Of a stretch of DNA of 64,000 bases, positions 2,644 through 32,542 are shown one piece after another (position 1 is the first letter of the stretch; every line of letters starts with the position of its first letter). The notes under the pieces are model-generated. The model was not told where the DNA came from. It did not search any database and worked only from the letters and a program-made list of their open reading frames with translations. The DNA is from a virus (lineage: Duplodnaviria; Caudoviricetes). The position numbers and the translations under genes were made by a program. The stretch spans positions 32,001-96,000 of IMG/VR virus record IMGVR_UViG_3300036784_000146. The stretch is one strand, 5' to 3'.

Positions 2644-3214
2644 TGGCTTCAGCGTCGACCCGAGCCAGCTGTTCGTCGCCGGGAACGGCCACCTGGAATA
2701 CATCGATCAGCTCGGTCAGCTCATCGACTTCGGCCCGGCCCCTAATGACTGGCCCAGCTCGGCCGGGGTGGCGACATCGCGTCAGGGCAAGAACGCCATG
2801 ACATCGGCCATGATGGCCCAGCTGGGTCAGCACGGGGCCACCCTGGGCGCCAACGCCGGGTCCTACGAGGCCCAGGAGGGGGCCAACAAGGCCAAGCTGG
2901 ACACCGGCGGCATGAAGGATATGGCGGGACTGATGACGTCCAGCATGAAGGATGTCGGCGGCCTGGCTACCAACACGTTCAAGGACGTGGAGGGCATCTT
3001 CGGTACCGCCGGTCAGGTCACTGCTGCGGCGGGAGGCAGTCTCGGGGGTGCTGCAGCCTCGGCGTCAGCCTCGTTCATGGGCAAGGTCTCGCCTCCGGCG
3101 TCGACTGCTCATGCCGTGACACCCACCTCGGGCACTCCGGAGTCCGCTGCACCGGCCGGGGCTGACGACGACGGGAGGAAGCACGATGGCACCCACGCTC
3201 AGCAGCATTCGTAA
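2636..3214 (+). CDS. EspC/PE-like type VII secretion target
   Basis: FSVDPSQL N-terminus, ~90 aa helical-hairpin-like domain ending in the YxxxE motif (SYEAQE), then a low-complexity tail. Confidence 0.6.
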   Translation: MTSGFSVDPSQLFVAGNGHLEYIDQLGQLIDFGPAPNDWPSSAGVATSRQGKNAMTSAMMAQLGQHGATLGANAGSYEAQEGANKAKLDTGGMKDMAGLMTSSMKDVGGLATNTFKDVEGIFGTAGQVTAAAGGSLGGAAASASASFMGKVSPPASTAHAVTPTSGTPESAAPAGADDDGRKHDGTHAQQHS

Positions 3215-9402: not shown

Positions 9403-11367
9403 ATGTCCGGTGGTTGTTTTGAAGTTTTGGCCGCATCGGAGGACGAGCAGAAGCTCGCCCAACAGCAAGCAGGTGACAGGCTTGCCGCCGCCGTCTATGA
9501 CGTGCGCCAGGAGTTTGGTGACTTCCTGTTCAAGGCCGCCAACATCCAGGAGTTCCGCACCCGGGTGGCACTGGTCAAGGACGACATGATGAAAGTCGTC
9601 GATCGCCACCTTCCGCCGGTGTCCGGCGTGATGGGCCGCATCGCGGTGCGCCGGGGCTCGATCCTGGAACGCCAGTTCAAGGCCTTCAAGAAGGGCGCCC
9701 CGTTCGCCGACTATGACAACTTCGCCGACTGCACTTCCAAGAACAGCGACAAGGACAACCCCGACGCCTACTGCGGGGAGATCAAGCACCGTACCGAGGA
9801 CAAGACAAGCGCCCGGCGGCTGGAAGCGACCCACAGCATCGTCGCCGACGACCCGCACTTGGGCTGGTTCGCGGTCGCCGACGCCACCTCCGGCGCCGGT
9901 GAGTACGTGAACGACATGGAGGGCCAGCTGTCCGGCGGGTCGGCGATGCCTCCCTCTCCTCTCACGTCAGGTGATCCCACCGGCGGCATGCTGGGCGACA
10001 CGGTGGTCCCAGGCAACATCCCAGGCAATCCCGGGATCGAGGGGGACAAGCCCACGATGCCCGGCGGCCTGAAGAGCTGGGGCCGTCGACGGCACTGGGC
10101 CACCGGCGAGGGCGGTGCGTTGTCCACTGACGAGACCTATCACCCTGAGTCCGGCGCGCTGATCCCTGAGGGCGACTGGCACGGCTTCCAGGACAGTGTC
10201 GACCAGGGTGCGGAGTCCAAGGTCGACGACGCGTTCGCCTCCGGCGAGCACGACAAGCACTACGACGGCGACCCGTCGAACACCGACTTCGTCAGCGGCC
10301 ACGAGGCGGCCTGGGTCGGCCCAGACCAGCACAGCTACGTGGGCAAGCCGAAGGGTCAAGATGCTGAAGACTGGGGAAACTGGGAAGAGCACCTGAAGTC
10401 CCGAAGTGCCGATCCTCGCAATCGCGAACACCCTTTGGTGCAAGACGCCAGGGACTCTCACGACCGGGCCATTGGGGCCCGGCGACGTCAAGCGGTGGAC
10501 GACGACAACAACGGCATCTACAACGTCATGCAGGGGCAGGGCTTCGGTCCCGAGCACGAGACCGGTGGGTTCGACGAAGCGTTCCCCTCCAAGATGGGCG
10601 CTCTGACTCTGCGCTACCTGTCGTTTTGCCATCGCAACAACCTGGCGCCGACGCTGGCCAGCCTGGAACGCCACGGCAAGAGGCTTGATCCTGGCGAGTA
10701 CTTAGCGCTCGCCAACGGGCTGGACAAGCTGGCCCGGCTGCCTCGGTCCGAGAAGGTCAAGGTGGCCCGGCTGGTGGACTGGACGCTGCGCCAGGCCGAG
10801 ACCTACCACGGCGAGGGCGACGTCGAGGACAAGTCGGGTCCTTTCGCTGGTCCGCACGGCTCCTTCCCGGTCGGCACCGAGAGCGACCTGAGTGGCGCCA
10901 AGGACGTGTGCAATATGCCTTCGGTGCACGGCAAGCACCCGGGCACGTGCGACCGCATCGAGCACATGCAGAAACCGGCTGCCCGACGGCGTCGAGCTGC
11001 ACCGGACTATCTGATGAAGGCCAAGGACGCGCTGGAAGGCCTGCTCAATCAGAAGGCCGAGGAGTTCCAGACTGGCGTGGCCCCGCTGCAGCAGGCGCTG
11101 CAGGTGGTCCAGCAGTCTCAGGCCATCGAGCAGGCCAACAACCCGCTTAGTGTCCAGCCCCCGGCGGGCACCGTAAACGTCTTGCCCGATCCTCCACAGG
11201 GTATGCCCGGCGCTCCGGCGGCTGGCGGCGGCGCTCCGGCGGACCAGAACGCTCCCCCTCCGGCAGCCGACGCAGCTGGTCTGTCAGGGATGCCTCCTGA
11301 CCCCACCCAGCAGATGGCGGCGAGCCGGAGGCGTGGTGGTCACCCAAAAGGCCGGGTCCCCGCGTAG
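9403..11367 (+). CDS. large low-complexity head-region protein (short form of a frameshifted gene)
   Basis: Long ORF, likely ATG at 9403; modular blocks separated by Arg-rich x-Ala motifs. Confidence 0.75.
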   Translation: MSGGCFEVLAASEDEQKLAQQQAGDRLAAAVYDVRQEFGDFLFKAANIQEFRTRVALVKDDMMKVVDRHLPPVSGVMGRIAVRRGSILERQFKAFKKGAPFADYDNFADCTSKNSDKDNPDAYCGEIKHRTEDKTSARRLEATHSIVADDPHLGWFAVADATSGAGEYVNDMEGQLSGGSAMPPSPLTSGDPTGGMLGDTVVPGNIPGNPGIEGDKPTMPGGLKSWGRRRHWATGEGGALSTDETYHPESGALIPEGDWHGFQDSVDQGAESKVDDAFASGEHDKHYDGDPSNTDFVSGHEAAWVGPDQHSYVGKPKGQDAEDWGNWEEHLKSRSADPRNREHPLVQDARDSHDRAIGARRRQAVDDDNNGIYNVMQGQGFGPEHETGGFDEAFPSKMGALTLRYLSFCHRNNLAPTLASLERHGKRLDPGEYLALANGLDKLARLPRSEKVKVARLVDWTLRQAETYHGEGDVEDKSGPFAGPHGSFPVGTESDLSGAKDVCNMPSVHGKHPGTCDRIEHMQKPAARRRRAAPDYLMKAKDALEGLLNQKAEEFQTGVAPLQQALQVVQQSQAIEQANNPLSVQPPAGTVNVLPDPPQGMPGAPAAGGGAPADQNAPPPAADAAGLSGMPPDPTQQMAASRRRGGHPKGRVPA

Positions 11368-11372
11368 GGGAC
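11343..11372 (+). other. -1 programmed ribosomal frameshift signal
   Basis: C CCA AAA heptamer in register with the zero frame, 6-nt spacer, then a GTCCCC-GCGTA-GGGGAC hairpin. Confidence 0.7.
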
Positions 11373-12077
11373 GTCGTCAAGGACTACCAGAGCTGGCTGA
11401 ACCGGCGCCCGGACAACCGGGGCGGTTCGGATCTCGAAGAGTTCGCCGTCGAGCATCCCATCGGTGACCGTGCCAAGCGCACCCTGCAGGAGCAGATGTA
11501 CGGCCAGCCGTCGCAGACCACGGCGGCCTACCAGGCGGCCTGCAAGGTATTCGGCAAGCAGGCCGTCGACGCCAGTCGTCGCGGCCGCACCGCGTCTCGC
11601 AAGCAGGCCTGGATGGGCTGGGGCCCTGCCCAGCTCGACCATCACCCCCGGGTGGCCGGATGGGACTGGGATCCGCACCTTGAGGCCTACACGGCCAGGA
11701 CACCCGGCCGGTTCGCCTGCTCGTGCGGCAATCAGATGGACATGCCCGGCCATCACGAGTGCAAGTGCGGGCGGCTGTACAACGGCTACGTGATCGGTAC
11801 CGGCGGATCCAACCACGAGGCCAGCGCCGAGAAGTATCTGGTGCGTGAGATCACCGTGCGCCCCGACGTCATCGTGGCCAACAAACAAGCGGCGCCGTCC
11901 GGCTACTACGGCAGCCCCGCTTACGATCCCGACGACCCCGACGCCGACTTCCCGTCAGACCACCACCCGTCCGTCGGCCGTCAGCCAGCAACCCCGGACG
12001 ACTGGGCGCACCGCAACGAGAAGAACGATTGGACGTCTCATCCGTTGCCCCGGCGTAAGAGGCGCCAGCCAGCTTGA
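11343..12077 (+). CDS. -1 frame extension of the 9403 gene (Zn-finger-like CxC..CxC domain)
   Basis: Frame is open and coding-like from 11343 (PKRPGPRVGDVVKDYQSWLN...), ~50 codons before the first ATG at 11496; contains FACSCG...HECKCG. Confidence 0.65.
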   Translation, partial: PKRPGPRVGDVVKDYQSWLNRRPDNRGGSDLEEFAVEHPIGDRAKRTLQEQMYGQPSQTTAAYQAACKVFGKQAVDASRRGRTASRKQAWMGWGPAQLDHHPRVAGWDWDPHLEAYTARTPGRFACSCGNQMDMPGHHECKCGRLYNGYVIGTGGSNHEASAEKYLVREITVRPDVIVANKQAAPSGYYGSPAYDPDDPDADFPSDHHPSVGRQPATPDDWAHRNEKNDWTSHPLPRRKRRQPA

Positions 12078-16847: not shown

Positions 16848-19800
16848 ATGACAATGATCCACACGGCGCACGGCGTCGGTGAGGTAGTCGAGACCGTCAC
16901 CGAGCGCGGCGGGCGCGTCAGCTACAAGGTCAAGGTTGGCCTCAACGAGGTCTGGGTGAAGGCCGCCGACGCGCGCTTCGCCGAGGGTGGCCCAGAGAAC
17001 CTGTTCAGCTACCAGTTCACTCCGGATCGCCACATCGATCCCACCGCCGAGATGTACGGAGCCTCGACTCCGGAAAAGGACTTCGTCGTGGGCAACGTCT
17101 TCGCCATGGGATCCAAGGGCTTCTCTCCGATGGCTCCGGCCAAGAGCGTGCGCGACATCAAGCGTCCCTACCCGTACGACCCCACCCCGCAGTACCCGGT
17201 CGACATGTTCACAGACTCGACCATTCAGCCCGGCGAGTACGAGATCGATCCCGACAAGCGGCTCAAGCCCTCGCAGCCGAGCACGCAGCCCCCGTCGCCG
17301 GGGCCGAGCCCCAGCCTGTTCGCCACCGGTGCTTACAGCGCGATCCAAGACCGCCCCGAGATCGTCCTGGGCAGTCGTCCCGGCAGCGACGAGGACTACC
17401 TCATCCACGAGGGCTTCTTCGCCGAGGCCGAAGAGCTGACCGACGAGCAGCGCGGCAAGCGCCGCGAGGACTATCCACGTCAGAGTCGCGACCCGGCGGC
17501 CGACCGTCCCCGCTTGCGCGAGCACGACGAGCCGGTCCTCCCCTTCGACAAGGTCTCTCCGTCCGGCCACACCACCCACGAGATGGGCAAGAAGAGCGAG
17601 CCCGACTGGTACAGCTGCCCGGACTGCGGGGCCTGGCACAACCCGTTCCGGCACATGAAGAACCGCCGGGGTCCCAAGCCGCCGCGCTCCGACGACGCTT
17701 TCCAGCCCGCCTACAAGGGCGCTTCGATGCGCTGTGCGGCCTGCGAGCATGACCACCAAGAGCACGGCATGGGCTATCACGAGGGCGAGGGCGAGTTCGA
17801 GAACTATCAGCCGCCTTGGGAGCGCTCGGCTGAAGGGCGCCACCGCGCGCCGCCCAACGAGGTGGACCCCTTCATCGACACTCTCGACCGTGGTGCGTTG
17901 CCCGAACTGGTCAGAGATCCCGGCAACGACCAGCAGGTCTTCATGAAGCGCACTCCGACACCGAAGCCACGTGGGGAGCACTTCGCCCCGGGCATCATGG
18001 ACCGTCTGCGCGGCCGGGCGGCCGGTGTCTTCGACGGCATCGAGTTCCCCACCGACATGCCCGAGAAGTTCGCCTACATCCCCGGGCCCGAAGACTTCAC
18101 CGACTCGGCGCAGACCGCGCTGGCCGCGATCACTCGCCAGGCCGCGATCCTGGAAGGCGAGTATGGACTGAGCCCGCGCGTGGCCGTCGAGATGGACTTG
18201 GTCGAACACGACGCGCACGTGCGCGAGGCAGCATGGCGTGACGTCCAGCGCAAAGCCAAGCGCCTGCGCGCCGAGGGCCGGGTGCACATCAAGGACAGCA
18301 GTCCCGAGCACATCGTGGCCACCGTCGACGGCGACACCGGCACCTACGACACGATCATCGTGCGCGGCAACGTCTTCGACCTGGGTGGCCAGTCGGTCAC
18401 CAGCTGGCACTGCGGCTGCGACTGGGGTCGATGGGCGTTCAAACGCCGCCTGACCTACGTCGGGCGCTTCTGCTCTCACGCGTACGCCACCTACCAGGAA
18501 ATGCGTTCAGCGCACGATCTACCCGGCGGGACACGCAGCCGTACGCGCAGCGCCGGAAGCCATGAATTTGCGGACCCCACCGACGAAGCGGATGCCCGTT
18601 TGCAGTACGAGCAGTCCGGTGCAAGGCCGGTAGCTCCTGGTAGCGATGCGTACCTTCACGCCCCCAGACCCGCCGGTCCTCCCATTCCTGGCTGGGTGGG
18701 TCAGTCTGTCGAGGGCGGCGAGCCCGGCCGACACCGTGCGGCCGGAGTGGTCGAGGACTACAAGAAGTGGCTCAAGGAGAACGACCAGGTTCCCGGCGTG
18801 GACTCGGTGGCTGATTTCGTCACGCTGCCCCAAGACGACGATGAAGAGGCACCGCTGACCGAGGACGAGGTGGCCAAGCTCTACGACTACGCCGAGGGCA
18901 ACCTGCCGGAGTCTCGGGAGCGCAACTACGATGTGGGGTACACCTTCGACCCTGATGAGGTGTACAAGACCAGCCGCGAGATGCTGCGCACCAAGCCGCA
19001 GAGCCTCACCCCGGACCTGCAGTTCGTGCCCGAGGGCGAAGACGAGCATCTGGTCGACGTCACCAAGGACGACCGCAAGACCACCGGCCCGGGCCAGATC
19101 ATGCACGGCAACACCGATGACGAGGGTGGCCAAGAGCCCGGCGACGGCGAGATTGTGCACTTCGCCAGCCTGCAGCGGCTCTGCGACACCGAGGGCTTGC
19201 CCTACCCGGTCGAGCTGACTGCGTTCCTACAGCACTACGCCGAAGAGCAGAAGGTCAACAACCCGACCCCAGGCTCTCCGGCCAACCCCCGGCCGGACGC
19301 CGGTGAGGCCACTCGCGACCTCAACAAGCTGCGCAACCTGATCCAGGACCCGCTCTCCGACAGCTTCGGTCACATGGACGAGCGCAACGACAAGGTCCGC
19401 GATCTGGTGGAAGAGCTGCACGACGCCGGAACGGCCGCCGAGAACCTGGTGGCCAGCCGCCAGTTCGAGGCCGAGGGCGACTTTGCCTCTCCGGGTGGTG
19501 GCACCTGGGCCGATCTTCCCTTCGCGGGATCCGGCCCTGACCCCAAGGACTGGTACAGCAGCTCGGCCGACTACGTCGACGAGCACGAGCGGCCCAACTT
19601 CACCGACGTCACCGACCTGCCCGACGGCGACATCCTGAAGTACAACGACTCCGACTCGCCGGTGAGCAAGCCCAAAGAAGCCCGGTACGAGCACGAGGGT
19701 GAAGAAGAGGATTACGGCGACGAGGGTCCCCTGGAAGCTCCTTCCGATGCGCCTTGGGGCGAAAAGAACCCGCGTTGGAGCCCGCGCCACGCCGACTTGT

Positions 19801-27637: not shown

Positions 27638-28639
27638 GTGAGCGAGATAGCTCAAGACCTCGAACGCATCCTCGCCGACCTCGTTCGACGGGAGCTGGGA
27701 GCCCTTGGCGATCAGCTCGTCTCCGCCATCGGCAACATCAATTCCAAATTCAATGATTTCGACACCAAGCTAGGAGCAATCGTGACAACTCTCGACGAAT
27801 TGACCACATTGACGAACCAGGTGCAGACCTTGGTACAGGGCTTCTCTCAGGCCGGTACGGATGTAGCTGCGGCGGAGGCCCAGATCGCGGACCTGCAGGG
27901 CCAGTTGGCCACCGCGCAGACCCAGATCGCCACCGATGCCACCACCGCGCAGGCCGACGAGGCGCAGGTCGCCACGCTGACCACCGCGATAAGCCAGCTG
28001 CAGGACCAGCTCACCGCACTGCAGAATGTCCTCAACCCGCCCGCGCCGACCCCCACTCCGACTCCCACTCCGACGCCTACCCCGACACCCACTCCGACCC
28101 CGACGCCTACTCCAACCCCGGCGGCTTCCATCACGGTCACCAGCGTGTCTCCGGCCACGGGCAGCGACCAGGGTGGCGACACCTTGACGGTTGCAGGCTC
28201 GGGCTTCGCCAACGCGTCGGGCGTGAACTTCGTTGACTCGACCGGCGCCGCCACTCCGGCCGCCAGCTGGTCGCTGTTGGACGACGGCAATCTGCAGGCG
28301 GTCACCCCGGCGCTGGCCGACGGCACCTACGACGTGGTTGTGACGGCCACTGACGGCACCAGCTCGGCAACGAGCGCGGCCGACCAGTTCAGCACCTCGG
28401 CTCCGGCCCCTGCGCCCACTCCGACACCCACGCCTACACCCACCCCGGCTCCTAGCGGCACGCTGAGCCCGGTGGACCCTAACGCCGCTCCGGTTCCGGC
28501 CGGGACTCTGGACCCGACCACCCTGGTGGTCGAGGTGCCTGCGGGTACCACTCCGGTAGTCCTTCCGGCTAACGCCGTAGCTGTGGCCGCCGGTACCCTG
28601 CCCGCCGACGCGACAGTAACGCCTGTACAGCAGTCGTAA
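27638..28639 (+). CDS. coiled-coil / Pro-Thr linker / IPT-TIG (Ig-like) domain protein
   Basis: Heptad coiled coil, (PT)n linkers, ITVTSVSPATGS..GG.TLTV.GSGF...V.F IPT signature. Confidence 0.75.
   Translation: MSEIAQDLERILADLVRRELGALGDQLVSAIGNINSKFNDFDTKLGAIVTTLDELTTLTNQVQTLVQGFSQAGTDVAAAEAQIADLQGQLATAQTQIATDATTAQADEAQVATLTTAISQLQDQLTALQNVLNPPAPTPTPTPTPTPTPTPTPTPTPTPTPAASITVTSVSPATGSDQGGDTLTVAGSGFANASGVNFVDSTGAATPAASWSLLDDGNLQAVTPALADGTYDVVVTATDGTSSATSAADQFSTSAPAPAPTPTPTPTPTPAPSGTLSPVDPNAAPVPAGTLDPTTLVVEVPAGTTPVVLPANAVAVAAGTLPADATVTPVQQS
28046..28120 (+). repeat. 6-bp tandem repeat encoding (Pro-Thr)n
   Basis: CCNACN repeats; a second shorter tract lies near 28410-28447. Confidence 0.85.
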
Positions 28640-31552: not shown

Positions 31553-32542
31553 GTGGTTGCCTATCCGTCGGGCATGGCCGTCTGGTCCCCGAAGATCACC
31601 AACTCGGCGTTGGCCCGAAAGTTCGTCTCGCTCAACGGGTATGGCTACGTCGCGATCACCATCTATAACGGCCAGACTGCCGTCGACCCCGACCCGGGGA
31701 CGCTGGCCCTGCAGGTCTGGTTCGACGACGTCACCAATCCCGATGCGACACTGAGCGATCCGCGCGGCACTCAGGTGATCAACGTGACGGCCAGCGAGAT
31801 CACTCGCGCCGATACTGGCATGTACCACTACGCCATTGGACCCGAGTACACCGGCAATATCGGGGTGCTCACCGCCGAGTGGTCCTATCAGGTTGCCGGT
31901 CAGGCCATCACCTACAGCGACTACCTGCAGATCCTCGAACAGATGCCGTTGTACGAGACGCTCACCGACGCCGAGAAAGGCCTTGTCGAGCAAGTGAATT
32001 GGATGCTCGGGGACCTCTTCGATTCCACCACCGGCGGCCCGCACCTGATGGACGAGTTCCAGACGCACTTCAATTCGGAGCGCATCGCCGAGCTGGCCCA
32101 GATCGCCACCACCCGGTTCAACTACATCGGCTTCCCGGTGACCGACTACGCCTTCGGGGGTACCAGCTCGGGCCAGGGTGGCTTCACCGGCCTGTTGGTG
32201 ATCGGCACTTACCTGGAAGTGCTGCGCCACCTTATCCGCAGCTACGTCGAGATCCCGGTGTGGCAGAACATGAACGTCACCTACGAGGACCGCCGCGAGT
32301 ACATGGCCCGCTGGAAGCAGGTCTTCGACGACGAGTGGGCCGACTACCAGACGATGGTCAAGATGGCCAAGCGCTCGCTGCTGCAGCTGGGTCGGGGCTC
32401 GCTGCTGCTCGGCGGTGGCTACTTCGGCATGAACGGCAGCCGGGGCCTGTTCCTGTTCAGCCCCTACTCGGCTCTCGCTCGGAGCTTCCGCTTCTATCCC
32501 GCCGCCCCGGCGATCAGCTTCCCGTCGACGAGGATCCCGTGA
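31553..32542 (+). CDS. head-tail adaptor/neck protein
   Basis: Synteny; DRREYMARW and LLLGGG motifs typical of large-myovirus adaptors. Confidence 0.55.
   Translation: MVAYPSGMAVWSPKITNSALARKFVSLNGYGYVAITIYNGQTAVDPDPGTLALQVWFDDVTNPDATLSDPRGTQVINVTASEITRADTGMYHYAIGPEYTGNIGVLTAEWSYQVAGQAITYSDYLQILEQMPLYETLTDAEKGLVEQVNWMLGDLFDSTTGGPHLMDEFQTHFNSERIAELAQIATTRFNYIGFPVTDYAFGGTSSGQGGFTGLLVIGTYLEVLRHLIRSYVEIPVWQNMNVTYEDRREYMARWKQVFDDEWADYQTMVKMAKRSLLQLGRGSLLLGGGYFGMNGSRGLFLFSPYSALARSFRFYPAAPAISFPSTRIP

Follow-up and report, generated by a model that had tools for sequence, protein, structure and literature searches.

The window described here, 64,000 nucleotides from positions 32,001 to 96,000 of the IMG/VR virus record IMGVR_UViG_3300036784_000146 (Caudoviricetes), carries two overlapping open reading frames (ORFs), A and B, which lie directly ahead of a small gene and the portal gene. 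Comparison with related phage sequences indicates that the two ORFs very probably make up a single gene of the family phrog_2922 with a programmed -1 ribosomal frameshift site, a C CCA AAA heptamer, inside it. The two ORFs match the two ends of the family profile (ORF A at profile positions 5-183, E 1e-28; ORF B at positions 924-1070 of 1237, E 1e-26), and they are thus read as two parts of one protein family on the strength of these alignments. Mycobacterium phage Phrappuccino gp44 (779 aa) is one ORF that aligns first with A, which corresponds to its N-terminal two thirds, and then with B; the alignment spans the junction, from ...PPDPTQQMAA in frame 0 to RVGDVV..W in frame -1. Both parts are likewise found in a single ORF in Myrna gp87, Cali gp83, Tonenili and Gordonia phage Pupper gp86.

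It is proposed that ribosomes translating ORF A would reach the heptamer and pause at a GC-rich hairpin 6 nt downstream, whereupon a fraction would slip back by one base, with CCA exchanged for CCC in the P site and AAA for AAA in the A site. Ribosomes that do not shift would terminate at the UAG at 11365 and release a short isoform of 654 or 662 aa, while those that shift would read through ...GGHPK-RPGPRVGDVV... as far as 12077 and produce a long isoform of 891 or 899 aa, the length in each case depending on whether translation begins at ATG 9403 or at TTG 9379. The features of the gene are collected in Table 1.

Table 1 Features of the frameshift gene in the window
Feature	Position	Strand	Remarks
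ORF A, 0-frame gene (frame 1)	9379/9403..11367	+	predicted short isoform; phrog_2922 positions 5-183
CGU GGU GGU adjoining the slip site on its 5' side	11332..11340	+	GGUGGU kept at synonymous positions in relatives
Slippery heptamer C CCA AAA	11343..11349	+	putative re-pairing of P-site tRNA-Pro (CCA to CCC) and A-site tRNA-Lys (AAA to AAA)
ORF B, -1 frame from the re-read A at 11349	11349..12077	+	242 codons and stop; predicted C-terminal extension of the long isoform
Predicted stimulatory hairpin GUCCCC (11356-11361)/GGGGAC (11367-11372), loop GCGUA	11356..11372	+	6 bp, by folding
0-frame stop UAG	11365..11367	+	overlaps the hairpin loop and the 3' arm (first base only); 5 codons past the slip site
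Beta-rich Cys4 (zinc-ribbon-like) core of the extension	11646..11858	+	invariant alignment columns; pLDDT about 90 over residues 100-150

The probable slip site and its predicted products

The elements on which the earlier note had based its proposal of a frameshift can be read directly in the sequence: an in-register C CCA AAA, a spacer of 6 nt (11350-11355) and a GC hairpin of 6 bp by the stop at 11367. The codons of ORF A across the site are CGU GGU GGU CAC (11341) CCA (11344) AAA (11347) GGC CGG GUC CCC GCG UAG, which places a canonical X XXY YYZ heptamer in the register of the gene. The GGUGGU that ends 2 nt ahead of it resembles a Shine-Dalgarno (SD) sequence (GGAGGU with one mismatch) and may be either a stimulator or an attenuator. 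The 34 nt on the 3' side of the heptamer fold with -16.5 kcal/mol against a mean of -8.4 for the gene, which puts them at the 2.2nd percentile of all 34-nt windows of the same gene. Rfam covariance models gave no match in 11200-11520 at E values of up to 1. The only tRNA in the 143.6-kb genome, which is available as a single contig of 143,610 bp, is Arg(ACG) at 28366-28439, and therefore no tRNA of the phage itself acts at the slip site. The Cluster C relatives of the phage, by comparison, carry about 30 tRNAs.

A bare heptamer of this kind is not rare, with two occurrences in the window where 3.8 are expected. The full configuration requires an ORF of at least 100 codons with an in-register heptamer close to its end, and a -1 frame that stays open for at least 80 codons; it is found at only two sites on both strands of the whole genome. 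The second of these is a G GGT TTC on the + strand at genome position 125688 (window 93688), near the end of an open frame of 448 codons; its 0-frame stop follows 26 codons on, its -1 frame remains open for 150 codons, and it could represent a tail-chaperone or another frameshift.

The short isoform, counted as 662 aa from TTG 9379 or 654 aa from ATG 9403, ends in ...RRGGHPKGRVPA, and GGGAGAAGGGA lies 6-7 nt upstream of the TTG. The -1 frame stays open over 11301-12077 and, as the earlier note had stated for about 50 codons, is devoid of a start over a considerable distance: neither ATG, GTG nor TTG occurs in 11301-11495, and the first is the ATG at 11496, 49 codons after the slip point. The start-less stretch is nevertheless taken as translated because the GC content at third codon positions (GC3) over 11368-11495 is 0.86 in the B frame, as opposed to 0.74 and 0.38 in the two others. 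Homology of the B frame to relatives and coding-type GC3 both run from 11361, ahead of any start codon, and since the homology begins where no ATG, GTG or TTG exists, B is not initiated there. Translation through a -1 slip yields ...GGHPK-RPGPRVGDVVKDYQSWL... (RPGPRVGDVV) and continues to 12077, in agreement with the junction peptide HPKRPGPR given before.

Split and fused relatives

DNA of relatives was gathered by scanning metagenomes and IMG/VR, and a protein database was searched as well; a scan of genome contigs gave nothing with a single protein as query and one locus with an alignment as query. The order of the family gene, a small gene (phrog_2858) and the portal gene is kept in all of the 50+ loci. 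The loci fall into a split type, in which A and B occupy different frames as in the window, and a fused type, in which both parts share one ORF. The split type is represented most closely by ten loci (L006-L012, L033, L034 and L036), in which A and B stand in frames f and f-1, CCCAAAA is in register and the 0-frame stop follows 8 codons on; the path of 29 nt from the heptamer to the GVV codons is the same in these loci and in the window. L006-L012 are seven contigs from seven samples with three distinct junction sequences and about 50% amino acid identity to the window. L027 and L054, with 33-41% identity in B, are also split and have CCCAAAA with a 0-frame stop 1 codon on, and L004 combines G GGA AAA with a 0-frame stop 1 codon on and a hairpin of -29.7 kcal/mol (z -4.0). 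L054 (CAIPNE010000714.1, 149.6 kb) is binned as an 'uncultured Gammaproteobacteria' metagenome-assembled genome and is probably a mis-binned phage genome; its family gene, small gene and portal gene follow in phage order.

The fused type comprises 23 distinct genes, among them those of the Cluster C mycobacteriophages and of Gordonia phage Pupper. Exactly one in-register heptamer is present at the homologous site in each of them, and the -1 frame stops after 0-5 codons in 23/23, where the background probability of a -1 stop within 5 codons is 0.18. The heptamers are CCCAAAA, GGGAAAA, CCCTTTC, CCCTTTT and, once, AAAAAAA; Myrna, Cali and Pupper have C CCT TTC with the -1 stop 2 codons on. The -1 stop is reached through at least eight different codon solutions (e.g. 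AGG UGA, AGC UAG, CGU CGU UAG or an immediate UGA). A slip in these genes would therefore have the opposite consequence, termination within 0-5 codons and a short isoform with the same end, as for the tau and gamma products of dnaX. Both architectures are thus predicted to give the same pair of proteins, a short form that ends near ...RGG-x-(P/G)-K and a long form that runs on into the Cys4 domain. The earlier note had held that relatives with the two ORFs fused in frame would speak for a sequencing error. Such relatives do exist, but they do not refute the frameshift because they keep an in-register heptamer and a -1 stop within 0-5 codons at the homologous spot.

Two loci depart from both patterns. 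In L023 the site of the fused form (2771) is C CCT TTT with an immediate -1 UGA, and a second in-register heptamer, C CCT TTA (3305), lies 178 codons further on; here the 0-frame stop follows after 5 codons and the -1 frame runs for 446 codons into the B core. Either this gene has two frameshift sites or its assembly contains an indel. L051 has a fused-type GGGAAAA (1243-1440) with a -1 stop after 5 codons, yet its 0 frame ends 57 codons later, the B core is in the -1 frame and there is no heptamer at that overlap; the break is probably an indel or an assembly error.

The comparison of relatives also indicates that the site is conserved across the family as a whole, and beyond what the protein sequence needs. 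An in-register XXXYYYZ heptamer occurs in the junction zone of 29/33 distinct loci, at 3.9e-3 per codon against 7.3e-4 elsewhere in these genes. The codons that compose it are rare ones: AAA accounts for 13% of Lys, CCA for 8.6% of Pro and GGA for 9.6% of Gly, and while Pro-Lys is written CCA-AAA in 1/119 cases and Gly-Lys as GGA-AAA in 1/168 cases elsewhere in these genes, both are written in this way every time at the site. The heptamer is preceded by any of H, Y, S, R, Q and W, yet the third base of that codon is always X, the base after the heptamer is G in 28/28, and GGTGGT is found at -8..-3 in 16/28 distinct relatives although GGT makes up only 26% of Gly codons. This choice of codons is the strongest argument for selection that would act at the level of the nucleotide sequence. 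The proposal that a frameshift yields two products from this gene accordingly finds its support in the conserved site, the rare codons and the occurrence of split and fused relatives.

The hairpin is retained in a more variable manner. The 34 nt after the heptamer rank among the lowest 10% of fold energies of their own gene in 19/28 relatives, and the stems, which begin about 5-7 nt past the heptamer in most of them, differ in sequence (GGGGCC/GGCCCC, GGCCC/GGGCC, GGCCCGG/CCGGGCC, CCCC/GGGG and GUCCCC/GGGGAC). A covariance model made from the GGGAAAA subgroup recovers its training set as well as L004, L039 and L018 and misses the CCCAAAA sites and the window.

When a tree is built from the conserved parts, split loci appear in three places: the window with L006 and L007 (support 100/100), L004 inside a fused clade with GGGAAAA, and L027 with L054 next to the fused L040. 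No fewer than two changes of polarity are required by the well-supported branches, and the isoform that depends on the slip appears to have flipped at least two to three times. In the loop of the window, GCGUA, the UAG is in frame 0, whereas in the loop GCUA of L040 and L041, which is 1 nt shorter, it is in frame -1; a one-base indel in the loop therefore suffices to flip the roles while the same stop is kept. Comparison indicates that in the phage of the window and in at least two other lineages a 1-nt indel beside the site has swapped the two roles. A reversal of roles through a single-base change has been discussed for dnaX, where it applies when the efficiency is near 50% (PMC5009743). From the repeated swapping it may be inferred that the efficiency of frameshifting in this family is substantial and not far from 50%.

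Taken further, these observations would make the site an ancient, family-wide switch between two isoforms, which would be the same throughout and would have been missed by annotation in more than 200 sequenced Cluster C mycobacteriophages, in the Pupper-like phages of Gordonia and in many uncultured relatives. Single-base indels, located next to the hairpin loop or within it, would then have changed the slip-dependent isoform on three or more occasions, which would imply an efficiency near 50%. This wider reading is somewhat favoured, with considerably more reserve than the presence of the site in the window. Under it, the conserved peptide RGG-x-(G/P)K-G-RGA-x-RP would largely be a by-product of the SD-like GGUGGU, the heptamer and the hairpin.

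Alternative explanations

Several results weigh against a programmed frameshift. The hairpin of the window reaches z values of only -1.0 to -1.3 against dinucleotide shuffles and is not significant in GC-rich sequence. The CCCTTTC subgroup (Cluster C, Pupper and L014) has no clear hairpin, and its case therefore rests on the heptamer and the conserved -1 stop. Formal covariation or compensatory pairing is not established by alignment, covariance model or pair counts: RNAalifold on a MAFFT alignment of 21 sites found no consensus structure because the lengths of spacer and loop differ, and pair counting within the GGGAAAA subgroup revealed no compensatory changes. Four lineages, including Phrappuccino, have no heptamer at the site. 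An AGGAG (11488-11498 region) precedes the ATG at 11496 by 3 nt in the B frame, and it is possible that internal initiation at this ATG gives a weak minor product of 193 aa, B'. The closest relative found, the 925-aa protein P0017, is fused, with 74% identity over the best-matching stretch of B. It reads ...RRRQGGHPK-GQRRQGAGVVDKYRSW, and its path has the same length as the -1 path of the window; the two junctions therefore differ by one base, and a base missing from the present assembly would look the same.

The main rival explanation is accordingly an assembly error or a recent frameshift mutation, ranked first since P0017 has the fused form and the genome, that of an uncultured phage, comes from a metagenomic assembly. 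On this view a single ORF like that of P0017, from which the window differs by a net one base over the junction, would be the true or ancestral state of the gene; only a truncated and perhaps non-functional A would be made here, and the heptamer would matter only as a site of the fused, dnaX-like type. A miscount of A4 for A5 in the homopolymer would give an identical picture. This is nonetheless improbable. The next clade, whose ten loci come from different samples, shares the split and the 29-nt path, the invariant residues and the coding-type GC3 of B are intact, and the window as it stands has its 0-frame stop 5 codons on, like other split phages. Addition of one base would leave the new -1 frame free of stops for about 38 codons as against at most 5 in all 23 fused relatives.

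A slightly smaller chance still is given to the possibility that A and B are two separate genes, with B translated only from ATG 11496 as a product of 193 aa, or else through re-initiation or coupling past the stop of A. Besides the AGGAG upstream of this ATG, it can draw on gene callers, which start a B-like gene there (P0001), on stand-alone B-like calls in the protein database and on distant relatives (Rhodococcus phage E3 gp68/gp70, RedWattleHog gp8/gp9, L031 and L032) that encode the A-like and B-like parts separately. The 49 codons before 11496 are, however, homologous to relatives (RVGDVVKDYQSWL...) with a GC3 of 0.86, there is no alternative start in 11301-11495, and the Met of 11496 is not conserved but replaced by L or W in relatives. 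The heptamer, the rare codons and the nearby stops across the family would also be left unexplained. Transcriptional slippage, by which RNA polymerase would add one A to the run, restore the frame and so give the same protein, is very improbable: some bacteria use it in dnaX, but it needs roughly seven or more A's to be productive, the run here has only four, relatives have CCCTTTC or CCCTTTT with 3-4 T's, and the X XXY base match and the conserved spacing of the hairpin are ribosomal features.

Known systems and the protein family

The programmed -1 frameshift favoured here is of the classical kind, and the gene family in which it occurs is a new one. No description of the site turned up in literature searches, a paper on the Myrna capsid makes no mention of gp87, and the instance is thus undescribed in the literature found. 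Phrappuccino gp44, Myrna gp87, Cali gp83 and Pupper gp86, which are homologous to both ORFs and occupy the same position before the phrog_2858 gene and the portal gene, carry single-ORF annotations without recoding; in Phrappuccino the heptamer has been lost.

The most instructive parallel is dnaX of E. coli, which produces tau and gamma by means of A AAA AAG, an upstream SD-like element and a downstream hairpin. In both systems one gene, with an X XXY YYZ heptamer and a hairpin about 6 nt past it, gives a long and a C-terminally truncated isoform (predicted for the phage gene), and in the fused relatives the shifted ribosome would stop within 0-5 codons, as it does for gamma, with the purine-rich, SD-like GGUGGU upstream. 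The polarity of the window is the mirror image of that in E. coli, as it is the 0 frame that ends, 5 codons on, with 242 further codons open in the -1 frame. Unlike dnaX, which encodes a clamp-loader subunit, the phage gene encodes an unrelated head-region protein and employs C CCA AAA, G GGA AAA or C CCU UUC, and its SD-like motif is 2 nt rather than 10 nt from the heptamer and may act differently. In its polarity the window is closer to the tail assembly chaperone G/GT of phage lambda and most other long-tailed phages, also a late gene in which the 0 frame is short and a -1 slip near its end extends the C-terminus. It differs from G/GT in that it precedes the portal gene and not the tape measure gene, belongs to another family and has much larger predicted products (about 650 and 890 aa), and in most of its homologues the polarity is reversed, a situation not described for G/GT. 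The 10A/10B pair of T7 is similarly a head-related gene with a C-terminally extended form, a minority form in T7, made by a -1 shift near the stop. In T7 10B the major capsid protein is extended by about 50 residues, whereas the extension predicted here has 242 residues and several domains and is joined to a protein that does not have the capsid fold.

The tail-chaperone site is the only frameshift that is routinely annotated in actinophages, and other programmed frameshifts are almost never annotated. If the present reading is correct, the gene would provide a second, widely conserved recoding site in actinobacteriophages, one that lies in the head region. The annotation of a 'split' gene in this phage would need correction, and hundreds of well-studied Cluster C phages would be predicted to make an unannotated truncated isoform. 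The family would also offer a natural series of repeated reversals of frameshift polarity, so far discussed mainly for dnaX, in which the link between efficiency and gene architecture could be tested with cultured phages in Mycobacterium smegmatis.

The extension of the predicted long form has three parts: a module of three helices, a beta domain with four Cys (Cys4) and a basic tail. The structural model of B has the three-helix module followed by a confident beta core with four invariant Cys (CxC...CxC), whose codons are at 11718, 11724, 11760 and 11766, which makes the earlier description of the extension as Zn-finger-like plausible. Neither ORF A nor ORF B has a match in Pfam, phrog_2922 carries no functional assignment, Foldseek against the Protein Data Bank (PDB) gave no match for B at E <= 0.001, and the wide structure search of B with VIA-align gave only uninformative winged-helix-like matches (Z about 5) to residues 1-54. 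A likeness of the -1 frame to the protein encoded at 16848, which had been noted earlier, proved weak (14/44 identical, E 0.06), and paralogy with that protein is not supported at this E value. The constant position before the portal gene suggests a head or portal-associated role. In Rhodococcus phage E3 the feature that holds the homologue of the B core is annotated 'structural protein', which suggests a virion protein.

Separate genes for the two parts also inform on the domain boundary. In L031 (the same as L053), which has a lower GC content, the A gene ends in ...QQGKS* at the homologous boundary (3040-3100) with no canonical heptamer, and since it ends at the homologous point the boundary is a real module boundary. 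Small Cys-rich ORFs are inserted in L031 before the separately encoded B part. Modules are also found on either side of the slip site: GDVEDKSGPFAG...CN.PSV (window 10768-10992) is in ORF A here and 3' of the site in P0017, and the ORF A motif APFADYDNFADCTSKNSDKDNPDAYCGEIKH (window 9694-9789) recurs in the B part of the relatives P0003, P0006 and P0008. In E3 (L057, 4899-8058) gp70 carries a pseudogene flag, for which the only apparent reason is an annotated span, 3160 nt, that is not divisible by three; no stop interrupts frame 3 between 4530 and 8417, a stretch that passes through gp70 and gp71.

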